The position numbers and the translations under genes are program-made. Under the pieces are notes generated by a model. That model was given only the letters and a program-made list of their open reading frames with translations, had not been told where the DNA came from and did not search any database. A DNA stretch of 25,976 bases. Source: an uncultured virus (IMG/VR IMGVR_UViG_3300042560_002875) (taxonomy: Duplodnaviria; Heunggongvirae; Uroviricota; Caudoviricetes). The stretch is taken from IMG/VR virus record IMGVR_UViG_3300042560_002875. The stretch is one strand, 5' to 3'. This document shows, piece after piece, positions 6,541 to 24,784 of this stretch. Positions within the stretch are counted from its first letter, which is position 1. The number at the start of each line of letters is the position of its first letter.

Positions 6541-7415
6541 TCAGTAAACGAAGCTGTAGGCGACCGTGATGAAGTCCTTGTTCAGCACTTCAAAGCCGGC
6601 CATGAGGCTCCACACCATGATGATGAATCGACCAAAGTCATCATTGTTGTTGAGCAGGATTTGAGCATTGTCACCGCCAATACCCACGCCAACGGCCTGC
6701 ATCCCGAAGAACAGGATTGGAGCAGCTTCCGTGACAGCAGCTGAGATGCTGGCCACGGGGATGGTGGTGGTGTAGCTCTTGTCTGGCAGGTTGGTCGATT
6801 CAAACCATTGAATCCCCTCGAAAAGGAATCCAGTCGGCATGACCGGCTGACCGGCCACAAAGCCAGCCTGGCCGTAGCCAACGCCAGAACCCAGGTAGTT
6901 GATGGCATTGGGGGCCAGATGCGGTTGCATCGGATTGGCCATGCCATTGCCGGGGTAACGAGCGATCTCGCGGAAATCGCTGTCCTGGCGCAGGTGCTTC
7001 ATCGCAGTGGGACTGGCGATGCAGCGATAGTGCCCATTCGGGAAGGTTGGCACGTTGCGCCGACGCATGCCTTCAAGGACGTCCAGGAGGTCGTCCTTGA
7101 CCCCAAATTTGGCGGACTGGCCGGAGCCGTAGCTTGCGACCGTGGTGCCGGTTTTGGTCTTGTTCTTGGGGAAGAAATAGCCACCCTGGGTGGAATCAGC
7201 CCTTCCGTTGGCTTCTGCTTTGAAGAGCTCGTCAGCGAACACCCGATCACGCCAACGGCGGTAATCGTCAAGAAGTGTTAAGGAGCCGATCGACTGGTGG
7301 AACGCCGCGATATTGCGGGTATCCAGCAGCAGGCGCTGAGAAGTCATCAGCGTCTCCCGTGCCACCTTGAAGGTGCTGGGCTGGTCAGCCTGTGAAGGGT
7401 CGGCGGGGCCGGTAT
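6541..7415 (-). CDS. Major capsid protein, exon 2
   Basis: The track ORF frame extends upstream to 7413 (TGPADPSQADQPSTFKVARETL...). Capsid-like motifs: YRCIASPTAMKHLRQDSDF, GFLFEGIQWFESTNLP, FFGMQAVGVG, DDFGR..MVW. The spliced product is 379 aa. Confidence 0.85.
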
Positions 7416-8429
7416 CAGTGTTGTTACCCTAGAGGCTCTTTATCCCCTAGTTCTGCAGCTTTGCCATTGCTGCAGCTCAGACTATATCATCACCCTTCAG
7501 GTCCACCTGATTCGGGTGCGGAGCACTCGTGCCGCCTTATCGTCCACTTCCTGCAAGCAGGTGTTGGGACTCGCTCAGCCATTGGGCAACAGTGCCCGTT
7601 CGACTGAGGTCAACTTTGTAGGCAAGGCAGGGATGTATGTACTCAGTAATGGCTCCAACAAGTAGTCGAAACTGCTTGGCGAACCATCGGAGATACAGCA
7701 TTCCACCTTTGTGACGAACAACTGAGCCAGAGGCTCCGGTGACGTCGTGAATCCAAGAAGCGACAACATCAACCTCCTCTTCATCCTTGCTGACGGGCAG
7801 CCAGCCAGAGCGCTCGACCTTGATCGAGCGAGGCCTCTGACGGCGACGGACCTCCAGGGATCCATCGTCCATCCAGAGAAGTGCCAACGCCTCGGGGCCG
7901 AGGTCACTGAACGCCTGAGGGGTGAATCTTTTGACGCCATTTGGATATAAGACGTCATACACGGGGGCGAGGTGCCGCTTGCTGCTGACGCCGAAACGGA
8001 CGGCGGGGTATTTCCCTTTGTCCATAAACGAGCGCAGAGATGCAGCAGTCCCGAGCTCTTGATTCAGCCGAGCCAGCTGCCATTGCGCGTAAGGCGCCTG
8101 GCGCTGACAGCGGCTGATGTACAGCGTAACTGTTCCGAAACGCTTATCGCGTCTCAGACAGCCATCACCAAGAGCACATCCCATGAAAAACGCTTGTGTC
8201 ACAACTTGATTGCCTAGGGAGTCGACAACGGTAGTCGTTGAACCTTCCAGCCATTCCTGGCTGGCTTGGCTGCTGATTACCCGGCCCAGTGTCATCCGTA
8301 AGAGTCTACCGGTTGGAGGGCTTCCAGCAATTCACTCCGTGTTCGACGCGGATTACGCCGCGAAGGAGCTGATAGCCAGAGCTGGTACGTCCGCCTCAGG
8401 GGCGAACAGGCCAGTCAGGGCTTGAGCCA
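7416..8429 (-). mobile_element. Group I self-splicing intron (IA-like architecture), 1014 nt, in the major capsid gene
   Basis: 5' exon ends in U (GAG T at 8430) and the intron ends in G (7416); the join gives KE-Y-TGPADP in frame. Core elements on the minus strand: P AAUUGCUGGAA 8322-8332; Q AAUCAGCAG 8270-8278; R GUUCAACGACUA 8232-8243; S GAUAUAGUC 7480-7488; P3 CGGAGUG 8333-8339 pairs UGCUCCG 7519-7525; P6 stem CCAGCCA-GGAA-UGGCUGG; P8 CACCC..UCAGGU/ACCUGA..GGGUG; P9 CUGCAGC/GCUGCAG. Confidence 0.93.
7537..8295 (-). CDS. Intron-encoded two-motif LAGLIDADG homing endonuclease
   Basis: Motifs AFFMGCALGDG and EALALLWMDDG, both retaining acidic residues. The bulk of the ORF lies between P7 and P3'. 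Start is ATG 8295 or GTG 8202. Confidence 0.85.
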   Translation of the reverse strand: MTLGRVISSQASQEWLEGSTTTVVDSLGNQVVTQAFFMGCALGDGCLRRDKRFGTVTLYISRCQRQAPYAQWQLARLNQELGTAASLRSFMDKGKYPAVRFGVSSKRHLAPVYDVLYPNGVKRFTPQAFSDLGPEALALLWMDDGSLEVRRRQRPRSIKVERSGWLPVSKDEEEVDVVASWIHDVTGASGSVVRHKGGMLYLRWFAKQFRLLVGAITEYIHPCLAYKVDLSRTGTVAQWLSESQHLLAGSGR

Positions 8430-8694
8430 ACTCTTTAAGGGTCACATTGACCTTGTCCTTCACGATGTTGCGAGACGACGCCGTGCCGAGCGTCTGATCA
8501 GCAGTGCGCTCTCGGGAGTCCTTGGTGCCAGGATTTCCCCAGTAGCGATAGCGGTCTAGGGCGACCGTTTGACCTGGTTGTGCCCCGAAATCGTGAACGA
8601 CAACAGGATCAACCGCCATCTCTACCACGTAGGCAGGATGGGGTCGATAAAGTTCGGCGCCCAGGATTTTCGGGAAATCATTGTCTATCCACAT
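8430..8694 (-). CDS. Major capsid protein, exon 1
   Basis: ATG 8694 (GGAG upstream): MWIDNDFPKILGAELYRPHP...PGQTVALDRY...KVNVTLKE. The G.TV...RY and VTLKEY pattern is typical of HK97-fold capsid N-terminal/E-loop regions. Confidence 0.85.
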
Positions 8695-8776
8695 TGGATG
8701 ACACGCTCCGAAAGATAAAGGATGTTGATAGCAAGCATTCCGCCCGCTGCTTCTTACACTAGAAAGGACGCGTGGG

Positions 8777-9388
8777 GTGAAATTGAACGCACCAGACATT
8801 CGCGGCCTGCTGGGAGTCTTCCTTGGTGACGGCTTCCTCTCTCAAAGCAGGTCAGCGGTCAAGGGCCATATCAAGGCCACCTTTCACGGTGGTGCCGACG
8901 AGCGTGAATTCCTCGAGGAGAAGGCAAGTGAAATCAAGCTCGTCATCCCAACCCAGGCCAAGATCTCGACCTATCAGATGCGCCCCAGCCAGACCGGCCA
9001 TCAGACCACGGTGCTGCGATTCCGGTTCTCGAGTCCACTGCTAGATCCGGTCTACAACTTGTTCTATCCCGATGGATTTCGGGAAATCACGCACCCCCTC
9101 TTGGACATTCTTGGACTCAGAGCAGCAGCCTGGCTTTGGGCTGAGGGGTATCGAAAGGGGGACAAGGACCATCGCCTGAGGAGAGTTGGGGCCCTGCGAG
9201 ACGAGGCTCGATTGGTCAGTGGCTGGCTCGAGTTTTTAACTGGCGCCAAGTCGTCCGTCACGGGCCAGTCCTCTCGAATACTGCCTCAACTGTCGTTCAG
9301 CTCTAAGGATGCGGAAATCGTCAAGGAGGCCCTCCTTCCCTATGCCCCGATCAGCCGGAAGCATTTGTTTCTCCCGGGGGAAAAATGA
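8777..9388 (+). CDS. Free-standing LAGLIDADG-like protein 1 (203 aa)
   Basis: RGLLGVFLGDG, LDPVYNLFYPDG and GLRAAAWLWAEG parallel the intron enzyme (LAPVYDVLYPNG; GPEALALLWMDDG). AAGGA RBS, GTG start. Confidence 0.75.
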   Translation: MKLNAPDIRGLLGVFLGDGFLSQSRSAVKGHIKATFHGGADEREFLEEKASEIKLVIPTQAKISTYQMRPSQTGHQTTVLRFRFSSPLLDPVYNLFYPDGFREITHPLLDILGLRAAAWLWAEGYRKGDKDHRLRRVGALRDEARLVSGWLEFLTGAKSSVTGQSSRILPQLSFSSKDAEIVKEALLPYAPISRKHLFLPGEK

Positions 9389-9993
9389 GCGCTCGTCTGG
9401 TTTCCATGGCCGTCGCCTATGCCATGGGCAGTGGCACTTTGAGGTGCAAGGGAGTCAAGCAGCGCCCCTGGCTGGAGCTAAAGCGGCTCGAAACAGAGCG
9501 AACCTACATGCTGCACCAGGTGCGATCCCTGCAGCGAGCGGGAGCGGGCCCCGTGCGCGCTGCTGTTGACATGCTTCCAGGCCGGCATTTTTACGATGTC
9601 TGCAGGGCCCGCCTGCAGCACGATGCATTCGAGAGGGCCATTGAACTGCTCGCTCCAGAAGGTGAAATCTCTCTCTCCAAAGAAGTCCTCGAGGTCGGAG
9701 GAGGCAGGGGCCTGGCCAGTATTTGGCTGGACCTGGGCCACTGGGATAGGGGAACCGCTGTGATCCCTCTCTCTAGTGAGCCCAATGCAGACGCCCTGCT
9801 GAGTCATTTGATCGGGCGTGGCGTTACTGGAATCGGCAAGGGGGGCAATCCAACAACCCTGCGCCTCTCAAAGCGGCAGTTCGCCCAATTCAGTGGGCTG
9901 ATTCGACACCATGTGCACCGCTCGATGGCCCATGCCCTCAGGGAGGGTTCAAAACATGGCACCTCAATCATGCGAGTTGCTACCCTTGTCTGA
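9385..9993 (+). CDS. Free-standing degenerate LAGLIDADG-like protein 2 (202 aa)
   Basis: SMAVAYAMGSG, AIELLAPEG and GGRGLASIWLDLG. The acidic residue before each motif Gly is replaced (S, L). ATGA overlap with the upstream gene. Confidence 0.65.
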   Translation: MSARLVSMAVAYAMGSGTLRCKGVKQRPWLELKRLETERTYMLHQVRSLQRAGAGPVRAAVDMLPGRHFYDVCRARLQHDAFERAIELLAPEGEISLSKEVLEVGGGRGLASIWLDLGHWDRGTAVIPLSSEPNADALLSHLIGRGVTGIGKGGNPTTLRLSKRQFAQFSGLIRHHVHRSMAHALREGSKHGTSIMRVATLV

Positions 9994-10131
9994 CCCCCGA
10001 AGCAGAACGGCGTCAGGGGGTCGCCCTTGTTGGTAGCGCAAGGGCAATTGCCAGGGCGGTGGATTTTTGTCGTTTCTCCACCGCGGTAACCGATCTCCGC
10101 TTGGGTCGCTCCCGGGCGGAGCGCCTGGTAA
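9992..10131 (+). ncRNA. Candidate structured RNA (two hairpins plus a three-way junction)
   Basis: Stems 9992-9998/10016-10022; 10023-10029/10039-10045; 10048-10055/10124-10131, which encloses 10056-10063/10077-10084 and 10095-10105/10111-10121. Non-Watson-Crick pairs in these stems are G-U on the plus strand. Confidence 0.5.
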
Positions 10132-10168
10132 AACTCTCTAGGATTGCTAGATAGGGCAATCAGTTGGC

Positions 10169-13100
10169 ATGCCGGATCAGCCGGGCATTACGACAAGATC
10201 GGAGAAGGGTGAGCCTCTTTCGTTTCAGGAAGTTGACGATAACTGGCGCCTGCTGACTTACCGCATTGACGAGGCGGAGGATGCACTTGATGACAAATAC
10301 TCGCCCGATGACAGGGCAACAGAAGAGGAGGCTGTAGCCGGGAGCCTGGAAACACCAGGCAGTATCAGCAACACGACGCTGATGACCCCTTACACCACCG
10401 CATTGGCTCTGGACCAGCGGGTGGGTCTTGGCGACCTCCTGGACAGGGTCGACACCCTGGAAGAAGAAGTCGTACAACTGGGGGAGGACACCGAGTTCCT
10501 GTTCAACACCAAATACGACGCTTCTGATCGGGCGACCAATCAGGAGGCCGTAGCAGGAGATCTCTCGACTCCAAACAGCATCAGCAATTCAGTGCTGATG
10601 ACTCCGTACACCACGGCACTGGCGATTGACGAACGGGTCAGCAGCAGTGATTTGTCCTACGACCCGGCAACCGGCGAGCTCGATATCTCCACGGGCGAAG
10701 GAGTCACACTGCCGCTGGCGGAACCGGAGGGTGATCCAGGTCTCCTCACTGGGGAGGACAAGGCCAAAATTGACGATCTCAAGCTTGTTGCGCTCACTGG
10801 CTCCTACAACGACCTGTCGGATCTGCCGGACCTTGGCTCTGCAGCCTTTACTGACTCGGAAGACTATGCCACCTGGGAGCAAGGGGAACTCGCTGATACG
10901 GCGGTTCAGCCAGAGGAGCTGACAAGCGCCCTGTCTTCCAAGGCTGACCTGGTCAACGGTCTGGTCCCAGCCTCACAGTTGCCGGGATTCGTGGATGACG
11001 TTCGGGAATATACCAATTTGGCAAGTTTCCCAGACCCGGGAACGACAGGAGTCATTTACGTCGCACTCGATGAAAACAAGCAGTACCGATGGAGCGGCTC
11101 GAGTTACATCCAGCTCACGGCCTCTCCAGGATCAACGGACGCTGTCCCTGAAGGCAGTGTCAACAAATACTTCACGGAGCAAAGGGCAGCAGCAGCAGCG
11201 CCTGTTCAGTCAGTAGCTGGGCGCACGGGAAGCGTTGTTCTCAGTGTCGGCGATGTTTCTAATGCTGTTGCAACGGGAGATTCCAGGCTGAGTGACTCCA
11301 GGGAGTGGAGCGCTCCAACAGCCACGGAAGCGGAGGCCACCCAGGGCACGTCTACGGAAAGGCGCGCCTGGACTCCAGTTCGAGTCTTCCAATCCATCGC
11401 AAGCTGGTGGAACGCCTCTAGCGATAAAACAAAACTCGACGGGATCACCCCGGGGGCCACTGCCAATTCCAGTGATGCCTTCTTGCTCAACAGGGCGAAC
11501 CACACGGGAAGCCAGGCCGCTTCCACGATTTCAGGCTTGGCAACGGTCGCCACAAGCGGCTCCTTCCTTGATCTAACCAATCGACCCACTCTCGGGACGG
11601 CCGCAGCCTTGGATGTTCCCGCGGCTGCTGGGGGGACCGCTCTCTCGGGCCAGGTCGTCAGGGGCGACGATCCACGTCTGGACAATAACCGCCCACCAGC
11701 TGCCCACAGCCACGGGAATATCACCAATGGCGGCGCTATTGGCAGCACTGCGAATCTCCCGATCATCACCACGACAGGGGGCGTCCTTACGACCGGCTCC
11801 TTTGGAGCAGCAGGGGGCACGTTTTGCGAGGGGAACGATTCAAGGCTGAGCGGCCCTCGAGAACCCACATCGCACAGCCACGGGAATATCACCAATGGTG
11901 GCGCTATCGGCAGCACCGCAAATCTCCCGATCATTACGACGGCTGGGGGAGTCCTTACTGCTGGTTCCTTTGGGACGGCAGGGGGCACGTTTTGCGAAGG
12001 GAACGATTCCAGGTTGGCGACCAATCTCGGCTATACGGCTGCCTCCAGGATCATCACTAGCTCGACTGGCCTGAGTGCGACGCTTCCGCTTGTAGAGGCA
12101 GCTGGTAACGCTGGGCTTCTGTCTGGTGCCGACAAGACCAAGCTCAATGGAATCAGCACGGGGGCCACTGCGAACTCCAGTGACGCGTTCCTGTTGAACA
12201 GGGCGAATCACACGGGAACGCAGCTCTTTTCGACGCTCACCTCAACGCCGACAACTCTGTCCGGGTATGGAATTACAAATGCCTACACCAAGGCGGAGAC
12301 GGATGCACTGGCTCAAGGCCTGAAGCCTAAAACCGCCGTCCGGGTTGCAACCACGGCAAACATCACGCTATCGGGGGCCCAGACTATTGATACTGTCACT
12401 ACTTTAGCTACGGGCGACCGTGTTCTTGTAAAAGACCAGACTGATAAATCTAAGAATGGCTTTTACAACTACAACGCAGCAGGAGCATGGACGCGCACGG
12501 CGGACTTTGATGAATGGTCGGAAGTCCCAAATGCTTATGTATTTGTTAGAGAAGGTCTGGTCAATGCGGGCGATAGTTTTGTCTGTATAAGTGGCAGCAA
12601 TCTGTTCGGTGCTAGTGAAATAGGCTCTTCAGATATTGAATTTATCCTGTTTAGCGCTGCCATTGAGATCGCCGCGGGGACAGGTCTCAACAAGGCGGGA
12701 AACACGATCTCCCTCGCAAATACCGCGGTCACGCCTGGCACTTACGGAAGCGCATCTCAGGTTGCCACACTCACGGTTGATCAACAGGGGAGGTTGACAG
12801 CAGCTGGCTCAACGCCACTTGGTGTTGGAACCACGCCCAATGTCCCGATCATCACCGGAGCAGGAGGGGTTCTCACTGCTGGCACTTTCGGAAACACCGC
12901 AAATTCTTTCTGTCAAGGCAACGACAGCAGGCTCAGTGATTCTCGTACACCATTAGCACACGCCCACGGCAATATCACCAACAGTGGAGCAATTGGTACA
13001 AATCCCAACTTGCCAGTCATTACGACAACCAGTGGTTTACTAACTACAGGCACATTTGGAAACACTGCGAATTCTTTCTGTCAAGGTAACGACAGCAGAC

Positions 13101-16100
13101 TGAGTGATGCTCGTACACCATCAGCACACACCCAGGCGTGGTCCACAATAACCGCCACTCCGACAAATCTGTCTGGATACGGTATTACAGATGCTGTTAG
13201 CAGTGCAGACAGCAGACTGAGTGATGCTCGCACACCATTAGCGCATACCCACGGCAATATCACCAACGGTGGAGCGATTGGTGCAAATCCCAACTTGCCA
13301 GTCATTACTACAACTGGTGGCTTGCTAACTACAGGTACATTTGGAAACACTGCGAATTCTTTCTGTCAAGGTAACGACAGCAGACTCAGTGATTCTCGCA
13401 CACCATTAGCACACACCCACGGCAATATCACCAACAGTGGAGCGATTGGTACAAATCCCAACTTGCCAGTCATTACGACAACCAGTGGTTTACTAACTAC
13501 AGGTACATTTGGAAACACTGCGAATTCTTTCTGTCAAGGTAACGACAGCAGACTGAGTGATGCTCGTACACCATTAGCACACACTCAGGCGTGGTCCACA
13601 ATAACCGGCACTCCGACGAATTTATCTGGATACGGTATTACAGACGCGGCTAGCAGTTCTCACGCCCACGGCAATATCACCAACGGTGGAGCGATTGGTA
13701 CAAATCCCAACTTACCAATCATTACGACAACTAGTGGCTTGCTAACTACAGGTACATTTGGAAACACTGCGAATTCTTTCTGTCAAGGTAACGACAGCAG
13801 ACTCAGTGATTCTCGTACACCCGTGGCACACACCCACGGCAATATCACCAACGGTGGAACGATTGGTACAAATCCCAACTTACCAATCATTACGACAACC
13901 AGTGGCTTGCTAACTACAGGTACATTTGGAAACACTGCGAATTCTTTCTGTCAAGGTAACGACAGCAGACTCAGTGATTCTCGCACACCATTAGCACACA
14001 CCCACGGCAATATCACCAACAGTGGAGCAATTGGTACAAATCCCAACTTACCAATCATTACGACAACCAGTGGCTTGCTAACTACAGGTACATTTGGAAA
14101 CACTGCGAATTCTTTCTGTCAAGGTAACGACAGCAGACTCAGTGATTCTCGTACACCCGTGGCACACACTCAGGCGTGGTCCACAATAACCGGCACTCCG
14201 ACGACTATATCCGGTTACGGGATTACAGATGCGCTGTCTACCGGTAATCAGAATCCCAATCTGGTGCTTGCCGGTCCATCGTCTGGCACTACTGCGGCCA
14301 CGCCCACTTTCAGGGCTTTGGCTGCTGGAGACCTGCCTAATGTCTCAGGCCTGACGGCAGCGGGCTATGGCAGCGCGTCAAGCGTGCCCACGCTGACTGT
14401 TGACGCAAAGGGTCGAATCACCGCAATAAGCAATACGGCTATCTCCATTGCCAATACCGCCGTCAGCGGCCTGGGGACTGCGTCAACCCGCAATGTCCCT
14501 TCAGGGGGAGGCGGTTCCAGCACTCCCAGTCTTCTTCCGGCCCCGGCCTCGGTTTCAGGAATCGACCTCGATGGGGATGGGGACGGAAACGTATTGTTTC
14601 AGGAAGCCGATAAAGCCTTTGATAACAATGTCACCACTAAGTATCGCAACACTGGAGGAGCCAACTCCGGCTTGGAGTTCTCATACGGGACGGCAACACA
14701 ACTTACATCATTTGTTATTACAACAGCAAATGATTCTACCGATCGAGACCCTGCCTCTTACCAGGTTTATGGATTCCAAAGCGGATCCTGGCAGCTGTTA
14801 ACTTCCGGTTCCCTTAGCCTGCCTACGGCAAGGCAGACCGACTCAGCGTCAATCACGCTCCCCGGCAATTTGCCTTCACTGACGCAGTACCGAGTGGTAT
14901 TCCCCACGCTTCGTGTCAGCGGCACAGCATCCATGCAGATTGCTGAGCTCAAGATGACCGGCATCCAGGGAACTGGGGGAGGCGGCGGGAGCACAAATGC
15001 CGCTGCTACCGAGGTCGTGCTCGGGAGCGATACCCGATTGACTGATGCCAGGACACCTACAACCCATTCCCATAGTGTTTTCAACAACACGACCTCCGGG
15101 TTTGCTCCTGCCTCAGGGGGTGGGACAACCAATTTTCTGCGCGCCGATGGAAGCTGGGCAGCACCTCCAGTCGGTGGGGGTGGGGGTGGAGGGACAGTAA
15201 CCAGTGTTGGACTGGCCCTGCCGAATATCTTTACGGTCTCGAATAGTCCCGTAACAGGTTCCAATACTCTGACCGGGACTCTAAATACTCAAAACGCCAA
15301 TCTCGTCTTTGCAGGGCCTGTTACAGGTGGTGCTGCAACGCCAGGTTTCAGGACACTTGTTGCAGCCGACATCCCGACCCATTCCCATAGTGTTTTTTCC
15401 ACTACTGCCGCTGGGTTTACTCCTATTTCACCAGGTGGGCAAACCAGGTACCTCCGCGCTGATGGGAACTGGGAGATACCTCCAGTTGGCGGAGGTGGAG
15501 GCGGCGGAACGGTCACGAGTGTTGGACTGTCCCTGCCGAATATCTTTACGGTCTCGAATAGCCCCGTAACAGGTTCTGGGACTCTGACCGGGGCTCTAAA
15601 TACTCAAAACGCCAATCTCGTCTTTGCAGGGCCCACTGCCGGTAATGCGGCAACGCCAGGTTTTAGGACACTTGTTGCAGCCGACATCCCAGCCCATTCC
15701 CATAGTCTTTTCACCAGTACTGCCTCCGGGTTTGCTCCTGCCTCAGGGGGTGGGACAACCAATTTCCTGCGCGCCGATGGAAGCTGGGCAGCACCTCCAG
15801 TCGGCGGAGGTGGAGGCGGCGGGACAGTAACCAGTGTTGGACTGTCCCTGCCGAATATCTTTACGGTCTCGAATAGCCCCGTAACAGGTTCTGGGACTCT
15901 GACCGGGGCTCTAAATACTCAAAACGCCAATCTCGTCTTTGCAGGGCCTGTTACAGGTGGTGCTGCAACGCCAGGTTTTAGAACCCTGGCTACAGAAGAT
16001 CTGCCCACCATCTCAGGTCTGGCGTCAGGAACCTATGGCAGCTCATCTCAGGTACCCACCTTCACTGTTGACGCGAAGGGGAGGCTGACAGCAGTACAGA

Positions 16101-17263
16101 ACGTAGGTGTGTCAGCTCCGGGTGTCGCGACTGCAAGCAACCTGATCACCAATGGAAACTTTGATATATGGCAGCGACGCACTTCGTCGGGGTCGCTCGC
16201 CGTGACAGCTAGTCCTCCCAGGGTCGCAGATAGGTGGGCTTCCGCTGTCCTGTTTGCAGCGTCTAATAACGCCTCGGGCACTTATACCGTTTCAAGACAA
16301 GCATGCACTTCAACCGAATTGGCAAGCTTTAGCGCTAGCTACTATCAAAGGATTGCAACAAGTAACGTATCCGCTGGGACAACAGGATTGAACAGCCTGA
16401 CTTCTGACAGCTTTGGGCTACTTGCACTCCAAAACGTTGAGGACGCGGCGTCTATCCTTGGTCAGACAGTGACCCTATCCTTCTGGGCCAGGGCTTCTGC
16501 TGCTACTCAGGTGGTTTCCGAATCTCAAATCTTTACCGTTGGTGCAGGGCGTTTTTGGACCCCCACGATATGCAAAACCTTCAATCTTACGACATCTTGG
16601 CAAAAGTTTACACATACATACACGATGCCAACCTATGCGCAGGTTGTGGCCTCTGCGTACAATCCAAATGCGGTCATTACAACGCAGACCAATCCAACCT
16701 ACACCCCTCTCGGTGAAGCCGCTTTACAGCCGCTGAGCAATTGGCTGTACCAGGTTGACATAAAATTTGCATGGTCCCTTGGTACGTGGAGGAGGTCTGG
16801 GAACGCTTATTCCACTCGCCCATCTGGCTTTGTGGGGACAGAACAAACCCAGGCGCAAATGAATAGCATGAACAACAGTTTGATCACAAACGGGTTCTAC
16901 GACATTGCACAAATACAAGTGGTGCCGGGATCTGGTGACCCCCAGTTCTGGCGTAGACCCGCCCAGCAGGAGCTCGCGCTTTGCCAAAGATACTATTGCG
17001 TTGCTCTTGCCAATACTCGTGGATACAATAGTGGGTCGAACTGGTTAGAGACACCCATCGTCTGGCCAGTAACCATGAGAGCAGCGCCCACTTGCAGCTT
17101 TGTTTCAGGTGTTGGTACTTCTGGCAATATCCAACAAAACCTAATTGAGTCCGTAAGTCCCATTGGAGCTAGGCATGCCATCCTGGGAATCAACAGCGTA
17201 AGCGACTCCTTTGCGCTCGCATTCCAGGTCGCTGCCGATGCTGAGAACAATTTAATTGACTAA
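10169..17263 (+). CDS. Giant tail fibre / receptor-binding protein (2364 aa)
   Basis: N-terminal ITTRSEKGEPLSFQEVDDNW anchor-like motif; VRVATTANITLSGAQTID...GDRVLVKDQT fibre domain; TPGTYGSA...VDQQGR and HxH repeats; PTTLSGYGITDA motifs; discoidin-like insert; C-terminal NLITNGNFDIWQR...TLSFWA...ELALCQRYY...PVTMRAAPT tip. Confidence 0.9.
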   Translation: MPDQPGITTRSEKGEPLSFQEVDDNWRLLTYRIDEAEDALDDKYSPDDRATEEEAVAGSLETPGSISNTTLMTPYTTALALDQRVGLGDLLDRVDTLEEEVVQLGEDTEFLFNTKYDASDRATNQEAVAGDLSTPNSISNSVLMTPYTTALAIDERVSSSDLSYDPATGELDISTGEGVTLPLAEPEGDPGLLTGEDKAKIDDLKLVALTGSYNDLSDLPDLGSAAFTDSEDYATWEQGELADTAVQPEELTSALSSKADLVNGLVPASQLPGFVDDVREYTNLASFPDPGTTGVIYVALDENKQYRWSGSSYIQLTASPGSTDAVPEGSVNKYFTEQRAAAAAPVQSVAGRTGSVVLSVGDVSNAVATGDSRLSDSREWSAPTATEAEATQGTSTERRAWTPVRVFQSIASWWNASSDKTKLDGITPGATANSSDAFLLNRANHTGSQAASTISGLATVATSGSFLDLTNRPTLGTAAALDVPAAAGGTALSGQVVRGDDPRLDNNRPPAAHSHGNITNGGAIGSTANLPIITTTGGVLTTGSFGAAGGTFCEGNDSRLSGPREPTSHSHGNITNGGAIGSTANLPIITTAGGVLTAGSFGTAGGTFCEGNDSRLATNLGYTAASRIITSSTGLSATLPLVEAAGNAGLLSGADKTKLNGISTGATANSSDAFLLNRANHTGTQLFSTLTSTPTTLSGYGITNAYTKAETDALAQGLKPKTAVRVATTANITLSGAQTIDTVTTLATGDRVLVKDQTDKSKNGFYNYNAAGAWTRTADFDEWSEVPNAYVFVREGLVNAGDSFVCISGSNLFGASEIGSSDIEFILFSAAIEIAAGTGLNKAGNTISLANTAVTPGTYGSASQVATLTVDQQGRLTAAGSTPLGVGTTPNVPIITGAGGVLTAGTFGNTANSFCQGNDSRLSDSRTPLAHAHGNITNSGAIGTNPNLPVITTTSGLLTTGTFGNTANSFCQGNDSRLSDARTPSAHTQAWSTITATPTNLSGYGITDAVSSADSRLSDARTPLAHTHGNITNGGAIGANPNLPVITTTGGLLTTGTFGNTANSFCQGNDSRLSDSRTPLAHTHGNITNSGAIGTNPNLPVITTTSGLLTTGTFGNTANSFCQGNDSRLSDARTPLAHTQAWSTITGTPTNLSGYGITDAASSSHAHGNITNGGAIGTNPNLPIITTTSGLLTTGTFGNTANSFCQGNDSRLSDSRTPVAHTHGNITNGGTIGTNPNLPIITTTSGLLTTGTFGNTANSFCQGNDSRLSDSRTPLAHTHGNITNSGAIGTNPNLPIITTTSGLLTTGTFGNTANSFCQGNDSRLSDSRTPVAHTQAWSTITGTPTTISGYGITDALSTGNQNPNLVLAGPSSGTTAATPTFRALAAGDLPNVSGLTAAGYGSASSVPTLTVDAKGRITAISNTAISIANTAVSGLGTASTRNVPSGGGGSSTPSLLPAPASVSGIDLDGDGDGNVLFQEADKAFDNNVTTKYRNTGGANSGLEFSYGTATQLTSFVITTANDSTDRDPASYQVYGFQSGSWQLLTSGSLSLPTARQTDSASITLPGNLPSLTQYRVVFPTLRVSGTASMQIAELKMTGIQGTGGGGGSTNAAATEVVLGSDTRLTDARTPTTHSHSVFNNTTSGFAPASGGGTTNFLRADGSWAAPPVGGGGGGGTVTSVGLALPNIFTVSNSPVTGSNTLTGTLNTQNANLVFAGPVTGGAATPGFRTLVAADIPTHSHSVFSTTAAGFTPISPGGQTRYLRADGNWEIPPVGGGGGGGTVTSVGLSLPNIFTVSNSPVTGSGTLTGALNTQNANLVFAGPTAGNAATPGFRTLVAADIPAHSHSLFTSTASGFAPASGGGTTNFLRADGSWAAPPVGGGGGGGTVTSVGLSLPNIFTVSNSPVTGSGTLTGALNTQNANLVFAGPVTGGAATPGFRTLATEDLPTISGLASGTYGSSSQVPTFTVDAKGRLTAVQNVGVSAPGVATASNLITNGNFDIWQRRTSSGSLAVTASPPRVADRWASAVLFAASNNASGTYTVSRQACTSTELASFSASYYQRIATSNVSAGTTGLNSLTSDSFGLLALQNVEDAASILGQTVTLSFWARASAATQVVSESQIFTVGAGRFWTPTICKTFNLTTSWQKFTHTYTMPTYAQVVASAYNPNAVITTQTNPTYTPLGEAALQPLSNWLYQVDIKFAWSLGTWRRSGNAYSTRPSGFVGTEQTQAQMNSMNNSLITNGFYDIAQIQVVPGSGDPQFWRRPAQQELALCQRYYCVALANTRGYNSGSNWLETPIVWPVTMRAAPTCSFVSGVGTSGNIQQNLIESVSPIGARHAILGINSVSDSFALAFQVAADAENNLID
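11700..14240 (+). repeat. 56-aa (168-nt) HxHGNITN repeats interspersed with AHTQAWSTIT..SGYGITDA units
   Basis: Two divergent copies at about 11700-12015, then one partial and six near-identical copies at about 12830-14160. Period 168 nt checked at 13251 vs 13419. Confidence 0.95.
15060..15990 (+). repeat. Three 105-aa (315-nt) repeats in the tail fibre
   Basis: CATAGT anchors at 15071, 15386 and 15701; unit HSHS.F...FLRADG.W..PPVGGGGGGGTVTSVGL.LPNIFTVSNSPVTGS..L...NANLVFAGP...TPGFRTL. Confidence 0.95.
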
Positions 17264-17278
17264 AAGCTTTCGACTCAA

Positions 17279-17704
17279 ATGACGTACCAACTCACCAATG
17301 GCAATACCGTTATCAGGCTGGAGGATGGGGCGTTCATCCCTTCGGACTCCCAGAACTTGGATTACATCGCCTTTCAAAAGTGGCTGGACGAGGGCAACAC
17401 CCCGGACCCGCCAGCTCCTTCCTCACCTCCTGGTCCTGATTACCAGGCGTTCTGGGATTCCCTGATTGAAAGCTCTGTCTATGCATCTATCCGTGAGCAG
17501 TCTTTCACCAGCCTCCCACTGAACACTCTGGCCACTGAGTTCATCGCCCTTCTAGGGGATGCAAAAAACGGTCGCGCCAACGTGCCTGCCATCCAAAGAG
17601 GAATCAGCGCAGTCCTGTCCGCTGGCTCGTTCACTCCAGATCAGCTGACTGAGTTCCGCTCGGCCCTTAGTGCTGGGCACCTTGACAGTACCTACCCCCT
17701 CTAA
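17279..17704 (+). CDS. Putative tail fibre assembly/chaperone protein
   Basis: VIRLEDGAFIP.D..N.DY..FQKWLDEGNTP is a motif typically seen just downstream of fibres ending in ELALCQRYY-type tips. Confidence 0.65.
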   Translation: MTYQLTNGNTVIRLEDGAFIPSDSQNLDYIAFQKWLDEGNTPDPPAPSSPPGPDYQAFWDSLIESSVYASIREQSFTSLPLNTLATEFIALLGDAKNGRANVPAIQRGISAVLSAGSFTPDQLTEFRSALSAGHLDSTYPL

Positions 17705-17710
17705 ATCGCT

Positions 17711-18508
17711 GTGGACCAATCCGACTCAGTCCTCCTTGCTAATCGCACCTATGGTGGCAGTGACAGCACACGGCCGGACTTCAATCGCCAGGCCTACGTC
17801 AAGTACAACTCTGTCCACGACTCTAGGGACCTAGGTCCAATCTCGAATGCCAAGCTCGACTTTCGCGGTGTCGTCGGAGCGAAAAGCGGGACGCAGACCC
17901 TGTTCTTTTCCTTTGATATAGAGGCCCCCTCTCGAATTGGCCTCAGGCGTATCCGAATCAACAAATACACCGATCAATACGTCATGGTCAGCCTGCGTAA
18001 CAACGCTGGGCCTATTGCCCTTGGCGATGACGGCTTTGCAGGCTCCGAGCTCTATCCGGTGGAAGTCCTCAAGTCTCCCTATTCGGTTGACCTTGGCTAT
18101 GTCAACGCCGGTTACTGGCAGAGGGGCTACGCCACCTATGACTATGCATTGCGCGACGGCGGCTCCGCAGTTGTCCTAGCCAGCGAGGCAGAGGCTGACG
18201 AACCGTTCACATCAAACTACGGGATCCTCTTGCCACCTGGAAAGTATTGGTTCCTTGTCTCGAGCAGCCAGTGGACAGAACTTCCTTACAGGGTTCAACT
18301 TGCAGTGATACCCCTGTCCGAGTCGGAGGCTGTCCTGGAGATGGAGTCTCAGATCCTGGCCCGGGCAGCCCTATCTGCGGGTTCCGCGGATATCGAGATG
18401 AGCACTGAACTCACGGCACGCGCAGTTCAAACCCTGGAACCCAGCATCTTGATAGAGGGGGAAACAACGATCACCGCATCACCAACAATTCTTTCCCCTT
18501 ATGGCTAG
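17711..18508 (+). CDS. Hypothetical, probable tail-associated structural protein (265 aa)
   Basis: Tightly linked to the fibre operon; beta-rich pattern with LPPGKYWFLVSS. Confidence 0.55.
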   Translation: MDQSDSVLLANRTYGGSDSTRPDFNRQAYVKYNSVHDSRDLGPISNAKLDFRGVVGAKSGTQTLFFSFDIEAPSRIGLRRIRINKYTDQYVMVSLRNNAGPIALGDDGFAGSELYPVEVLKSPYSVDLGYVNAGYWQRGYATYDYALRDGGSAVVLASEAEADEPFTSNYGILLPPGKYWFLVSSSQWTELPYRVQLAVIPLSESEAVLEMESQILARAALSAGSADIEMSTELTARAVQTLEPSILIEGETTITASPTILSPYG

Positions 18509-18546
18509 TCTCAACCTGTCAGAATAGGTTGACTGCCAGGCCATTC

Positions 18547-18957
18547 ATGCCATCCTCTCAATACCACGCCACCAATAAGCTCAACTGGCTCCGGGGAACT
18601 ACGTTTCCAGCGGCACTGAGCAATGTGTACCTCAGCCATCACACCGCGGATCCCGGCTCCTCCGGGGTCAATAGTGATGTCAGTACGGCTCTGGCTGGGG
18701 GGCGGACAACTTTGGCTACTTCGAGCTTGAGTGTGCCAGCAGCTAGCGCGGGAGGGGGTTTCCAGGTCAGCAATACGGCCACGGTTACGGCTTCCAGTTC
18801 AGCCGCTTCGGCTCAGACCATCACGCATCTTGGTATTTGGGATGCGCCTACTGGGGGTAATTTCATTACCTACGGCCTGCTCTCGCCCGCAGCTGTTATC
18901 GCCACGGGTGACGTGTATCGCTTTGCCACTGGGCAGATTGTTATCCGCGAGTTGTGA
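18547..18957 (+). CDS. Small tail-associated structural protein
   Basis: VYLSHHTADPG...ITHLGIWDAPTGGNF matches a common phage tail protein pattern (Y.ALHTADP...THxGIWDA.TGGN). Probable start ATG 18547. Confidence 0.7.
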   Translation: MPSSQYHATNKLNWLRGTTFPAALSNVYLSHHTADPGSSGVNSDVSTALAGGRTTLATSSLSVPAASAGGGFQVSNTATVTASSSAASAQTITHLGIWDAPTGGNFITYGLLSPAAVIATGDVYRFATGQIVIREL

Positions 18958-20424: not shown

Positions 20425-21399
20425 TCAGCCCTCGCTCACGAGCCACTTAGAGGTCAGCAGTTCAGGAGCCTGGCTCTGGACTTGGTCCAGCAGCATCCAG
20501 AGCTGGTCGGGCCTGGTGGTGGCTACCTGGTTGAACTGAGCCCAGAAGTCCTCTGGATTGACACCACCGCCACGGCCAGATGGCGCGGGCATGGGCATCT
20601 CGGGCCTCTGATAGGGGCGCTGGTTGGCCTCTACCTCAGCACGCAGGCGGTCCTGAGGGAGCTCCACGGGAGCAGGGCCCTCGGGTCCGAAGAAGTCGTT
20701 GACGTAATCAGCCAGCAGGTCGGGATCAGTGGTCAGATAGTTGTAGGCGTTGTTGTCTTCAATGGCCGCATTAAGGATCACCTCCATTTGGCTCATGTTC
20801 TGCGCCAGTTGCTGCAATTGCTGCATCGTGGTGCCGGTTTGCTCAGCCTGGGCCAGCAGGGCATCCTCTACGGTGCAGGCGTAACGATTGAGAAGGGCCG
20901 GGGCCTCAGCGCCGAAGTGCTGAAGAACCTCAAGACTTTCGTTGCTTACGCCGCTTAGGTACCCGTCCTCGACCTCTTGCGGGGCCTGGGTCGGGGCGTA
21001 CTGCGCTGGCACGTTCTGCAGCGCGCTCGGATAGCTCGGCGAATAGACCGGCGTTGCTTGGGGCAGCGAAATCGGGATCCCCGTACTGAACGCCGCTGGG
21101 TAGCTGGTTGTAGGCGAAGGGTAGTAAGCCGGGGAGGGAGCCGCCTGTGGCGCTTGTTGCCAATACGGTGCCTGGGGCTGGGATTGGGGCATCCCGTTCA
21201 GCCCGCCGCTCAGGCGCTGATAGGCCGCCTGCCACGGATCCACCATTTGCGGTGCTGGACCGGGTGCTGTCTGGTAGGAAGAAGGGGCCGCTGCTGCCTG
21301 GTAGCTCTGCGGGGAGACCGGCGCCTGCGCGTGCTCTACCGATGGCATCGAGTTCGCTGGGGCCTGAGGCACCTGCGGCATCGTTGAATTGTCCTGCAT
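20425..21399 (-). CDS. Putative capsid scaffold/assembly protein
   Basis: P/Q/A/Y-rich N-terminal half, then an acidic coiled-coil-like segment (LLAQAEQTGTTMQQLQQLAQNMSQMEVIL); follows the portal. Alternative start ATG 21381 with AGGA upstream. Confidence 0.55.
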   Translation of the reverse strand: MQDNSTMPQVPQAPANSMPSVEHAQAPVSPQSYQAAAAPSSYQTAPGPAPQMVDPWQAAYQRLSGGLNGMPQSQPQAPYWQQAPQAAPSPAYYPSPTTSYPAAFSTGIPISLPQATPVYSPSYPSALQNVPAQYAPTQAPQEVEDGYLSGVSNESLEVLQHFGAEAPALLNRYACTVEDALLAQAEQTGTTMQQLQQLAQNMSQMEVILNAAIEDNNAYNYLTTDPDLLADYVNDFFGPEGPAPVELPQDRLRAEVEANQRPYQRPEMPMPAPSGRGGGVNPEDFWAQFNQVATTRPDQLWMLLDQVQSQAPELLTSKWLVSEG

Positions 21400-23206
21400 A
21401 GGTCAGTTCTCGCTTGAGGAAATCGAAAGCCCGATAAACGAATGGAACCAGGTCGAGCCTGGGGTCTGCCAGGAGTGGAAGATCGGGCTGCTGCGGATGA
21501 GGGATCTGCTGCATGTCCCCGATGAGCGAGAGGAATGTTCCAATGCTCTGTTGCGTGGCCTGGGCCATCCTGAATGGATACCCTGACAGCATAGCGCTGC
21601 GTTCCTCATCTGTTTTTGAGGGGAATAAATGCTTCAGTGCTTCCACCGAGTCCACCCCAAGTTCTTGAAGGTTCCGCACCACGATCGATGCGTTGAGAAC
21701 GTCTTCAGGGCTCTCCTCAAAGACCGGCCCCCTCCAGCGCCACTCCACTCGCCGATCCCCGTCAGGAATCAGCCCGACAACTCCAACTGGGAGATCCTGG
21801 TTCTCCAGTGCCTCCGAGAGGTTGGCCTCTATCTCCTGCTCCCAGGCGGCGTATTCCTCTCTGTAGATACGCTCCGCCTCCTCATACTCCGCAGTAGCGC
21901 CATCGGCTTCAAACTGCTCAAAGATTGGCGCACTTGGCGGCGCAATCCCTAATGCAGCAGAGAAGGAGTCGCGGAAGATTTTCTCCTCGTGATGGATCAT
22001 CAGGCCTAGCAGTTTGCACAATCCGTAGGTCAGCAACCCGCGACACTTCCTGAGGGCCGTTGTTGCCGCACGGCCGAAGAGGCTCTTGATCTCGTAGGCG
22101 GTCGCGCCGGAGGAGATGCCGAGTTCATCAACGCCGCCTAGGGCTGTTCGGATCTCCTCCCGATACTGCCTGGCATACATGTTCTGATCGCCGCTGACCG
22201 CATTGGGCGTGATGTATTGCACCCGGTCGGTGGCCTCGAGATTGGCGATCAGGCGAGGCACTCTCATGTTGGATCCCAGGGATGGGGCTCCTGTTAAATC
22301 AAAGCGGCCTCCGCCTGAATTAGACCAGTTAGAGCGAGGAGCGGTCGACTCGAAACCGGCTCTACTAGCAATAGTGGGCCGGCGAGACTGCTCATCCCCG
22401 GACTCCATCATCTCGTGCTTAGCCCGACTGGAAACAAGTGTGGGGTTGCCGTAGAAACGAATGTTTTCGCGGATATTACGAACCAGGGAGTCATGCACCA
22501 TGATGTGTCCCTCCAGGCCATCAAAGTCCCCGGTGGCATCCATACCGGAAGAGCGCATGTTGTTAAACGCCTCGACCGCAGGGATAAAGCCCAGGGAGTT
22601 CCGTGTCGTCCGAGTCGACTTCCCAATGACCGACGAAGAGGCAGCAGCGGAGCCGAGGGAGGGGGAGAAGCGGCTTCCGATGGGGTCCTCAAAGGACGGC
22701 CTCTCGTTACTGATTTCCTCAATGATCTCGTCTTTTCGAACGACCAGCCGGACCCATTTCGTCGTGAAACCGCCAGTGGTTGAAACATTGAGCTTGTTTG
22801 CCTGGCTGCGCTCTTTGTAGGAGTAGATCAGGTCGATCTCATCGATCTGCTCATCCGCGTCGTAGTAGGACCTGTAGTTGTCACGGGTGAACCACATGAT
22901 GCGGTAGGTGTCCTTGACCGGGCGAAAGAACCAAAGCCCTAGCCCGTCAAGCACGAAGTCATCTCCAATCCCCTCGAGCCTGGCGTCGATCTCGTTTTCT
23001 TCGATGATCCTCTCCAGGAATGACTTCCGGAATCCGTAGGAATCCTGCCGAGGGTAGAACTCAACCCCCTGGCGCATCATGAAAAGCCGCATCTGAGCAA
23101 GATGCCCAGTGATGACGGTGGTGTCACCGCTTCCGCCCTTGCGACTGCGCGCAGCTTCCAGGAGTTGCTGGAATGGGGAGGACCGGGAATCGTTGTATTC
23201 GCTCAT
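20930..23206 (-). CDS. Putative portal protein (758 aa)
   Basis: Directly after terminase; portal-like elements (DFVLDGLGLWFFRP, LGFIPAVEAFN, FYGNPTLV, SGATAYEIK, VEWRW). The last 156 or so codons overlap the scaffold gene. Confidence 0.72.
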   Translation of the reverse strand: MSEYNDSRSSPFQQLLEAARSRKGGSGDTTVITGHLAQMRLFMMRQGVEFYPRQDSYGFRKSFLERIIEENEIDARLEGIGDDFVLDGLGLWFFRPVKDTYRIMWFTRDNYRSYYDADEQIDEIDLIYSYKERSQANKLNVSTTGGFTTKWVRLVVRKDEIIEEISNERPSFEDPIGSRFSPSLGSAAASSSVIGKSTRTTRNSLGFIPAVEAFNNMRSSGMDATGDFDGLEGHIMVHDSLVRNIRENIRFYGNPTLVSSRAKHEMMESGDEQSRRPTIASRAGFESTAPRSNWSNSGGGRFDLTGAPSLGSNMRVPRLIANLEATDRVQYITPNAVSGDQNMYARQYREEIRTALGGVDELGISSGATAYEIKSLFGRAATTALRKCRGLLTYGLCKLLGLMIHHEEKIFRDSFSAALGIAPPSAPIFEQFEADGATAEYEEAERIYREEYAAWEQEIEANLSEALENQDLPVGVVGLIPDGDRRVEWRWRGPVFEESPEDVLNASIVVRNLQELGVDSVEALKHLFPSKTDEERSAMLSGYPFRMAQATQQSIGTFLSLIGDMQQIPHPQQPDLPLLADPRLDLVPFVYRAFDFLKRELTYAGQFNDAAGASGPSELDAIGRARAGAGLPAELPGSSGPFFLPDSTRSSTANGGSVAGGLSAPERRAERDAPIPAPGTVLATSATGGSLPGLLPFAYNQLPSGVQYGDPDFAAPSNAGLFAELSERAAERASAVRPDPGPARGRGRVPKRRKQRKS

Positions 23207-23236: not shown

Positions 23237-24766
23237 CTAATACTCGAGCTCTGCCGGACCGCGCCTGAACAACTGGTCCAGCAGGATCTGAACTCCGTCG
23301 GCACAGTCGTCATGGGCTGTGTGCCCAAGGTTCAGCACCTCTTCCAGCACGACAGACCAGTCCCTGTACTTGTTGAATATCACGCGGTGGGTTTGGAATA
23401 GGCCCATGATCCCGCGGAACCGGGACAGCTTGTCACCGCGAATCCCGGTGACTGGAGACACCCTCAGATTAGTGAGGCCCCAGTCTTGGTGGGCAATCCT
23501 CTGGAAATCACCCTGGAACGATTTTTGATAGGCCACCGATTCAGGCCAGATCATCACATCAGAGCGAGTGGGCCGGTACTTGCTGCCATCGCGGATCAGC
23601 AAATTCCAGTCAGACAAGAGTTCGCACAGGGCCTCTACCTTCTCAATGTTCCCCATGGAGCGCACTCGCCTGTAATCAATCAAATAGCCCTTCTCCCCAT
23701 CCCTGCCGCCGAGCATGAACACGGTCCAGTCATTGCGCTCTTTCAGGCCAGAGGAGAGGTCCATCCCGACGCCGATCATGTCGAACGTGTCGGGAATGGA
23801 TCCCTTGATAAACAACTCAGGGGAAATCCCCAGCTCCGCGGATCGCACCGCCTGGTTCATGTACTGATACGCAAAGGAGACTCCGTCCTTGCGCTGCAGC
23901 CCTAACAGATATTCGAGCCCCCACATTTGCGGCCAGTAGGAGCGCACATCCCCGTCGTTGTTGTATTCAAGGGCGGCCTGAATCGTGACAGCCCACCCAT
24001 TGCGTTCAATGAACGTGGTGGCGAACATGTCGTCAAAATGGAACCGGGTGCCCAGGGCGATGGCACGGGCGCCCTCGAACATGGTTGGAACAATGACGCT
24101 GTTCCAGTTCGCTTCCATTTCCCTGCGGATTTCTGGATTCGCAATGGACTGCTTGGATTTGATCAGGTCATCCAAAATCACAAGACTGCTTCTCTTGGAA
24201 GCAATGGTTCCACGCAGGCCCGCGCAGGCGACAGTAAAGGCGTCTTCTCCTCTGACATCAATTCCTGCAAAATCAAAATCAATCGACCACAACTCGTCTG
24301 CTGTTCTCGCCTTGGAGAGGCGAACCATCGGAAAAACTTCCTGATAGTCCGATGACTGAATCAAAGTCTTAATGGCCAGGCTCTTCCCCCTGGCTACGTC
24401 GATGTTGTAGGACACGTAAAGAATCCGCAACAGCTTCCTTTGCAGGGCATGCCGCCCGATCAGCCAGGCGCATAGCAATCCCACGAAGGTGCTCTTTGCG
24501 GATCCCCTGGGACTCAGTAGGCATTCGTTGGGCCCAGCAACATCAAGGAGGTGGTCGCTGCTTTTGCCGGTGATGAACTTCTCGTGCCACAGCATCATGT
24601 GCGGCGCTGGCGGCTTCCCCATCCGGGTGCAAAAGGCCGCGAAATTGTCACGGGCCAGTTGAATGTCTTCTGGAACCGCCGCATCTGCGGATGTTCTCTT
24701 TGGGAGCCTTTTAGCAGCAGCAAGCGTGGAGCGCCTGCGCGCCTGGGCTATCGAAGTGCCAGCCAT
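23237..24766 (-). CDS. terL: Terminase large subunit
   Basis: Walker A PRGSAKST, Walker B LVILDD, coupling GTRFHFDD, nuclease GMDLS and HDDCAD. Likely start ATG 24766. No intein evident. Confidence 0.93.
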   Translation of the reverse strand: MAGTSIAQARRRSTLAAAKRLPKRTSADAAVPEDIQLARDNFAAFCTRMGKPPAPHMMLWHEKFITGKSSDHLLDVAGPNECLLSPRGSAKSTFVGLLCAWLIGRHALQRKLLRILYVSYNIDVARGKSLAIKTLIQSSDYQEVFPMVRLSKARTADELWSIDFDFAGIDVRGEDAFTVACAGLRGTIASKRSSLVILDDLIKSKQSIANPEIRREMEANWNSVIVPTMFEGARAIALGTRFHFDDMFATTFIERNGWAVTIQAALEYNNDGDVRSYWPQMWGLEYLLGLQRKDGVSFAYQYMNQAVRSAELGISPELFIKGSIPDTFDMIGVGMDLSSGLKERNDWTVFMLGGRDGEKGYLIDYRRVRSMGNIEKVEALCELLSDWNLLIRDGSKYRPTRSDVMIWPESVAYQKSFQGDFQRIAHQDWGLTNLRVSPVTGIRGDKLSRFRGIMGLFQTHRVIFNKYRDWSVVLEEVLNLGHTAHDDCADGVQILLDQLFRRGPAELEY

Positions 24767-24784
24767 AACTGGCAATGTAACAAC

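Follow-up and report, generated by a model that had tools for sequence, protein, structure and literature searches.

We identified a conserved structured RNA on the plus strand of the window (the whole stretch of 25,976 nucleotides of viral DNA that was analysed), located between a pair of LAGLIDADG genes and a tail fibre gene of 7 kb. That positions 9992-10128 form a real conserved RNA which is related to the bacterial RNA CyVA-1 (RF02965) is in our view very well founded. Two of its hairpin loops are complementary to each other over seven bases each (GAACGGC in the P1 loop and GUCGUUU in the P2 loop) and co-vary, which supports a kissing helix, a feature that was absent from an earlier note on this DNA. 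The reading that we prefer is that of a self-contained RNA of the CyVA-1 class with a rearranged layout and two kissing hairpins, which would be transcribed from a cassette of its own and work as a folded particle; this reading as a whole we consider about evenly balanced between being right and being wrong.

The RNA of about 140 bases is predicted to fold into five stems including a three-way junction in the minimum free energy (MFE) structure (Table 1). The features described in the earlier note were all found in the sequence, among them the five stems and the junction over about 140 nt and the start of the structure within a stop codon (TGA at 9991-9993, with the first stem beginning at G9992). 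The lack of a U tract after the last stem was also confirmed, and none of the three terminator-like sites in 8500-10500 lies within 9992-10168. Folding energy, which had been named as a check, was compared with 200 shuffled sequences and was better than in all of them (-88.6 kcal/mol for the plus strand vs -72.2 ± 4.6 for the shuffles, z -3.58, 0/200 as good). The minus strand folds about equally well (z -3.91), and the strand was therefore assigned by G-U pairs and not by energy. G-U or U-G pairs occur among 30 relatives at alignment columns 115-131, 116-130, 75-93 and 19-89, where the other strand would have A-C, in agreement with the plus-strand G-U pairs noted earlier. A further hairpin which had been pointed out at 10142-10161 is present in the MFE structure but is not conserved: L035, the closest differing relative, breaks four of its seven pairs without compensation, which places this hairpin outside the conserved RNA.

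Table 1. Positions of the RNA, its parts and the surrounding features in the window.
Feature	Position	Strand	Remarks
Major head protein gene	6541-7365	-	
LAGLIDADG gene inside capsid-gene insert	7537-8295	-	PF03161, 46.6 bits
Partial group I intron match in capsid insert	8190-8335	-	29.2 bits, E 7e-5; 1.7 kb from the RNA
LAGLIDADG ORF A	8777-9388	+	tandem paralog of ORF B; directly upstream of the RNA
LAGLIDADG ORF B	9385-9993	+	tandem paralog of ORF A; directly upstream of the RNA
TAnnnT box, TACCCT	9981-9986	+	5 nt before P1; possible -10 element of a putative promoter
P1 stem	9992-9998/10016-10022	+	17-nt loop 9999-10015 (GAAGCAGAACGGCGUCA)
Loop-A strand of kissing helix	10005-10011	+	GAACGGC, pairs with 10069-10075
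P1b stem	10023-10029/10039-10045	+	hairpin 10023-10045; extra hairpin of the window's subtype only
Three-way-junction domain	10051-10128	+	closing stem, P2 and P3 (MFE)
Closing stem	10051-10055/10124-10128	+	8 bp in MFE; encloses P2 and P3
P2 stem	10056-10062/10078-10084	+	loop 10063-10077 (AUUUUUGUCGUUUCU)
Loop-B strand of kissing helix	10069-10075	+	GUCGUUU, G-U at the variable position in the window
P3 hairpin	10095-10105/10111-10121	+	
Second box (TAGNAT), TAGGAT	10139-10144	+	25 nt before fibre start codon; borders the cassette, outside the RNA
Tail fibre gene, 2364 aa	10169-17263	+	PHROG tail and tail-fibre families, best 5.9e-54; downstream of the RNA
265-aa gene	17711-18508		homolog directly follows the RNA in L006, L018 and others
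Gp80 fibre protein gene	18529-18957		PF23140
Portal-like virion protein gene	20930-23206	-	
Large terminase gene	23237-24775	-	

Relatives were collected with a loop-pattern search, which identified 33 IMG/VR loci, and a two-loop-pattern search, which identified 27 IMG/VR loci, with two contigs that the first search had not given, as well as a 2.7-kb contig from a metagenome-assembled genome labelled Cyanobacteria. The resulting alignment consists of 30 distinct window-type sequences over 146 columns. Covariation in related sequences, likewise named earlier as a check, was found: 97.2% of the cells pair on the structure compared to 91.1 ± 0.4 in shuffles, and 15 pairs change on both sides compared to 8.3 ± 1.4, with none of 500 shuffles reaching 15. 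When partners were slid as a control, pairing fell to 38.6-47.5%. P2 shows two-sided change at all seven pairs, with 99.5% of cells paired, and P3 shows it at four of ten aligned pairs, with 99.3% of cells paired. P1 covaries at two of its seven pairs, and its outer pair (columns 8-34) occurs as five pair types across the 30 sequences. The five pairs of the closing stem are invariant in 30/30 sequences and, since they never vary, yield no covariation evidence either way. P1b is found in four of the 30 aligned sequences (the window, L020, L035, and L026), among which one pair changes on both sides and one pair on one side. The covariance model R1 matches 9987-10130 with 102.7 bits as the sole match in the window, which is itself one of the training sequences.

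The loops of the first two hairpins are near-invariant and read GAAGNAGAACGRCGUCA (first hairpin) and AUUUUUGYCGUUUCY (second hairpin, invariant or nearly so in the 30 relatives). Within the window-type alignment the kissing helix varies at a single pair, columns 24-84, which is GC in 22 sequences, AU in five and GU in three. Across all loci examined, with metagenome matches as listed, a fully complementary partner of the 4-nt core was found for 72 out of 83 distinct hairpins with a GAAG loop, a count that leans towards complementarity because the best partner within the search window was kept. The core pairs are CGGC:GCCG (43), CGAC:GUCG (9), CUAC:GUAG (6), CGUC:GACG (3), CUGC:GCAG (2), and pairs including G-U (9), with no partner core found for the remaining 11; kin among the 83 hairpins are not independent of each other. 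Judged from these sequences, five Watson-Crick variants at two positions would be hard to explain without loop-loop pairing. The loop-A motif is single-copy in the 3.1-Mb bin that holds the window. No second partner loop was found in the window, and the two core matches in the bin are chance-like, neither of them lying within a hairpin of the kissing-loop kind.

An Rfam search, a further check named in the earlier note, returned no match in the window at gathering score, but below the cut-off P1 (9992-10022) aligns to positions 38-68 of the 77 positions of the CyVA-1 model with 28.7 bits (cut-off 41.4), and 15 of the 17 bases in the P1 loop equal the CyVA-1 consensus. None of 17 related phage loci scores at or above the CyVA-1 gathering score. 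Two other matches were rejected, Bp1_684 on the minus strand (23.4 bits, cut-off 44) and GlsR4 (13.3 bits, cut-off 70), and tRNA and tmRNA were ruled out as ARAGORN predicts no such gene in the window. The structure had earlier been judged by eye to be neither a tRNA nor a group I core, and this was borne out, since in addition no RF00028 match occurs in 9800-10400 at E≤10. The CyVA-1 RNA motif is described, with a remark on its size, by Weinberg et al. (2017; PMC5737381), and detection of CyVA-1 in halite Cyanobacteria has been published. The supplement of Weinberg et al. (2017) may already annotate the pairing of the CyVA-1 loops, its taxa and its contexts. The portions of the literature naming CyVA-1 that we consulted do not place it in phages, and the listed titles on cyanophage kissing noncoding RNAs and on Synechococcus phage S-EIV1 include nothing on the RNA of the window. 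CyVA-1 has the type 'Gene; sRNA' in Rfam. To our knowledge, it is an orphan RNA which was catalogued in 2017 and has had no experimental follow-up since.

To relate the two RNAs, metagenome contigs were scanned for the loop and two stem pairs, which gave at least 120 stretches including many chance matches inside coding DNA, and 20 loci with a nearby partner loop were selected among the matches listed. Sixteen of these 20 selected loci, again among the matches listed, are full-length CyVA-1 (47.8-72.1 bits) with a loop order opposite to that of the window. In the CyVA-1 model one closing stem surrounds first the hairpin with the U-rich loop GUUUUaCCGUUuugu and then the hairpin with the loop GAAGGAGAaCGACGUCA. 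The pair of loops was found in several wirings: that of the window's lineage (A), the CyVA-1 order (B), CyVA-1 with a further perfect U-rich hairpin 60-110 nt downstream (C), and AT-rich marine phage forms located after a family-A DNA polymerase gene (D). A minimal wiring is present in L031 and L070, where two hairpins only are located about 20 nt before a ribosome-binding site, followed by a small ORF and a small-terminase gene. The third hairpin of wiring C is present at many soil-type CyVA-1 loci among the matches listed (L098, L114, L140, L133, L160, L161, L180, L131 and others), with further conserved hairpins after it; its loop complements the GAAG loop perfectly, and better than the first-hairpin loop of CyVA-1 itself does. 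The full RNA may therefore be longer than the Rfam model and contain two partner loops that compete with each other. Two of the four marine forms tested are near a glutamine riboswitch (RF01739; L144 1649-1700, plus strand, and L176 115-170, minus strand, 47.6 and 50.4 bits, respectively), which in L144 is about 130 nt from the kissing-loop RNA, where the loop pair follows the polymerase gene. The genes next to the two loops include a DNA polymerase gene on the upstream side, a small-terminase gene on the downstream side and, in bacteria, genes unrelated to these. The 42 ORFs scanned as neighbours of 37 loci that are not of type A are unrelated (OsmC, YidC, DinB, kinases, DNA polymerase, small terminase, and others), and the bacterial forms have neighbour genes that are unrelated to each other and lie on either strand.

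The gene content identifies the window as the structural region of a tailed phage. Among cultured phages, the freshwater Synechococcus phage S-EIV1 has the large terminase most similar to that of the window, with 47.6% identity along 98% of the protein, compared to 23% for the runner-up. Model and pattern searches found no RNA in S-EIV1, an empty answer which alone is weak evidence. The large-terminase CDS of S-EIV1 (KJ410740.1 54080-56620) is 2541 nt long and is matched by the 512-aa protein of the window in two pieces, which suggests that the S-EIV1 gene is interrupted by an insertion, possibly an intein. Neither a blastn search with positions 8700-11200 of the window and two marine relatives nor a tblastn search with ORF B gave a match among 50,697 phage records. 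In the assembly the window is on an 18.5-kb contig (C71) whose GC content of 57.2% is the lowest among 176 contigs of a bin with 68.1% ± 2.0 GC; this contig is probably mis-binned phage DNA, and the bin therefore gives no host for the phage. The second lowest contig (C132, 38.5 kb, 57.4% GC) may be the remainder of the same phage. CyVA-1 was detected in none of 150 other genomes of the bin's phylum at E≤0.001, which says nothing on the host.

Introns are a further feature of this region. The major capsid gene of the window is interrupted by an insert of roughly 1 kb (about 7417-8430, minus strand), and the near-identical relative L021 has an uninterrupted capsid ORF of 414 aa, of which residues 1-123 and 141-414 correspond to the two pieces in the window with 99% identity. 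L035 has an ORF of the same size, judged by size only from the ORF list. From these comparisons the insert looks like an intron that is present in some genomes and absent in others. Nine group I intron matches at or above gathering score (50.9-87.5 bits) were found in seven of 17 related loci (L007, L008, L009, L010, L011, L018, and L023), some with two, and in L008 the intron is on the strand opposite to the RNA; the window's phage lineage seems to be rich in introns.

Directly upstream of the RNA, ORF A matches PF03161 (LAGLIDADG_2) with 23.5 bits (cut-off 25), and six of seven of its relatives score above the cut-off; it also matches the third, intron-borne LAGLIDADG protein of the window with an E-value of 8e-9. 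ORF B has no Pfam match. The ORF B profile aligns to the ORF A profile with 97% probability (E 4.8e-11, 160 columns), so that the earlier label of a LAGLIDADG 'pair' was right: the two are tandem paralogs. ORF B has 33 invariant positions among nine sequences of 30-37% identity. Reading of the ORF lists indicated two such ORFs upstream at 32/32 type-A loci, and in L008, L014, and L017 the second upstream open frame extends into the RNA.

The RNA is not always present next to these genes. An ORF-B relative is present at 42 viral loci, and at 36 of these it is immediately followed by the RNA (model R1, 77-144 bits). Of the other loci, four stop short of the RNA site and two (L194, L220) include the site but have no RNA there. 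Five complete or near-complete phage genomes were found, three of which carry one RNA copy each, while the other two (G151 and G152, one of them 98% and the other 100% complete) have no RNA and keep both upstream ORFs; in G152 the stop codon of ORF B is separated from the start of the next gene by 58 nt. The downstream side also varies. In most relatives a 266-aa gene and then a Gp80 fibre gene follow the RNA instead of the 2364-aa fibre gene, and in some it is a 557-aa gene. In the window the homologs of the 266-aa and Gp80 genes are separated from the RNA by the fibre gene and a 141-aa ORF, and these two (10169-17704) look like an insertion relative to most relatives. The RNA thus behaves as a self-contained cassette, whose presence or absence leaves both neighbours in place and whose borders are approximate, as the window aligns poorly with RNA-less relatives.

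Two short boxes flank the RNA. A TAnnnT box precedes the CCGAAG of P1 in 30/30 relatives, at 9-10 nt in 11 sequences and at 21-24 nt in the 19 sequences with an extra 5' hairpin, compared to a background for TAnnnT of 0.0033 per position; the sequences are kin, and in many of them, though not in the window, the box shares bases with the stop codon of the upstream ORF. A second box (TAGCAT, TAGGAT or TAGAAT) is kept between the RNA and the next start codon in relatives and is unique in the window. The RNA-less G152 has it as well, as TAGAAT at a distance of 18 nt from the preceding stop codon and 32 nt from the following start codon. By its position the TAGNAT box is possibly the -10 element of the downstream gene, and the pattern is compatible with a cassette which supplies a -10-like box of its own and lies ahead of the box of its neighbour. 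A sigma-70 promoter scan predicted no promoter around the RNA, and no -35 element was seen. Terminators were not used as evidence, because in a simple test a clear terminator directly follows the bacterial CyVA-1 in only one of 16 loci; for the same reason independent support for a small RNA gene comes from the Rfam label and the varied neighbours and is thin. One sequencing run (contigs; probably DNA) covers only 10175-10324 and 10415-10564 and does not reach the RNA.

Taken together, the sequences compared here show the fold, the strand, the loop-loop pairing, the kinship to CyVA-1 and the cassette-like occurrence of the RNA. Beyond this, we propose that the cassette would be transcribed from the -10-like box at 9981-9986 into an RNA starting at the base of P1, which would act as a compact folded particle and be bound by a protein or small ligand that many bacteria have in common, while being dispensable for making its neighbours. 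Such a widespread partner is suggested by the wide spread of the RNA with unrelated neighbours. The kissing complex itself is the likely working surface, as suggested by the additional loop bases that are invariant and by the persistence of the loop pair when it is re-wired, and action by pairing with messages is unlikely since the conserved loops are occupied by each other. We give slightly less than an even chance to a stand-alone folded small RNA that has a protein or ligand as its binding partner, as opposed to a cis element.

The alternative that survives best is a cis-acting mRNA element, which would form the 5' terminus of the fibre-module message or the 3' terminus of the LAGLIDADG message and could there protect the message against end-dependent RNases or mark a processing site; we regard it as rather unlikely. 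The RNA is on the same strand as both neighbours and no terminator separates it from the fibre gene, and it may simply belong to a long message that extends from the LAGLIDADG pair into that gene. In addition, the hairpins of L031 and L070 are placed just before a ribosome-binding site and start codon, and a transcript from 9981-9986, should this box be a promoter, would start with a paired 5' end. Against a cis role, both neighbours are retained in relatives without the RNA, the downstream gene is not the same in all relatives, the second conserved TAGNAT box is located between RNA and gene, and the bacterial relatives have unrelated neighbours on either strand. The same results speak against the more specific suggestion of the earlier note that the RNA is a leader of the 7-kb fibre gene: relatives carry it before 266-aa or 557-aa genes, G152 reaches a homologous downstream gene across its short gap, and the TAGNAT box separates the RNA from the gene.

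LAGLIDADG proteins can have maturase activity, and endonuclease genes can adjoin their targets. The upstream pair of degenerate paralogs could accordingly be maturase-like RNA binders, or homing endonucleases beside a highly conserved RNA gene that is cut in naive phages, but we consider such a partnership very unlikely. In its favour the RNA directly follows an ORF-B relative in 36/38 loci holding the site, and ORF B is conserved and a paralog of ORF A. These loci are however one lineage, so that the count represents shared synteny and no independent association. Furthermore, the pair persists without the RNA in G151, G152, L194, and L220, and other phages as well as bacteria carry the RNA core but no such pair, which also leaves the earlier proposal of an ncRNA partner of the pair poorly supported. 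Equally improbable in our estimate is a ligand-sensing, riboswitch-like module in which, by analogy to purine riboswitches, the kissing loops would form a pocket. Such a sensor would fit the arrangement of two adjacent hairpins whose loops are docked, the further invariant bases that the loops have beyond the kissing helix, and the glutamine riboswitches about 130 nt away in two of the four tested marine relatives, but there is no common downstream gene class, no expression platform is recognisable in the window, and conservation is in the loops and not in the junction. A remnant or domain of a group I intron, as also suggested earlier, can practically be dismissed even though LAGLIDADG genes are typical intron passengers and group I introns occur nearby in the window and its relatives, because no group I match is found at the RNA while the same model detects the intron at 8190-8335 (minus strand), the flanks are separate genes without a split reading frame, and bacteria have this RNA core too, in the form of CyVA-1.

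Beyond the preferred reading of a folded small RNA, the kissing complex could be a module that is wired in several orders (in phages, in CyVA-1, and split by 60-110 nt) and represents an unrecognised class of RNA machine, an idea which we put forward as speculation and consider improbable, if somewhat less so than a LAGLIDADG partnership or a ligand sensor. If it is true, the class would be conserved over a range that extends from soil bacteria to phage relatives of cyanophage S-EIV1, as a sensor of a universal metabolite or protein or as a particle assembling via loop pairing between molecules like the phi29 packaging RNA, and in the window's lineage it may function alongside the two domesticated LAGLIDADG paralogs. 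More generally, this work suggests that the two loops of CyVA-1 pair, as backed by the five Watson-Crick variants, that the loop pair survives re-wiring of the backbone, and that several kinds of phage carry the RNA as a movable cassette; these three observations point to the kissing complex as the working part. For annotation, the stretch should not be labelled as leader, terminator or intron remnant.

Three known RNAs can be compared to the RNA of the window. In the purine-riboswitch type of 'tuning fork', a three-way junction is combined with docked hairpin loops. Both this type and the window RNA have parallel hairpins joined by loop-loop pairing beside a junction, but in the window RNA the kiss is 7 bp long and formed between large loops of 15-17 nt, and no conserved junction pocket, gene association or expression platform was seen. 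In the packaging RNA (pRNA) of phi29, loops pair between molecules and thereby build rings. The pRNA shares with the window RNA its phage origin, a three-way junction and two complementary loops, whereas the two have no sequence likeness and the window's phage has an ordinary large terminase; the kiss in pRNA is between molecules, while that of the window RNA may be formed within or between molecules. The closest likeness is to CyVA-1, which has a 17-nt GAAG-type loop (GAAGGAGAaCGACGUCA) on a G/C stem, equivalent to P1 of the window, and a U-rich loop (GUUUUaCCGUUuugu) that is matched by the P2 loop (AUUUUUGUCGUUUCU), and which has the loop-loop complementarity and a similar size class in common with the window RNA. 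The order differs, with the U-rich hairpin preceding the GAAG hairpin in CyVA-1 and the GAAG hairpin coming first in the window RNA. The closing stem of CyVA-1 encloses both hairpins, whereas in the window the GAAG hairpin is outside and the junction is made of the U-rich hairpin and a new third one; the window subtype adds a fourth hairpin, and the RNA is borne by a phage. With the same two loops in opposite order and a different enclosure, the RNA of the window is a rearranged variant of CyVA-1 rather than a member of that family.
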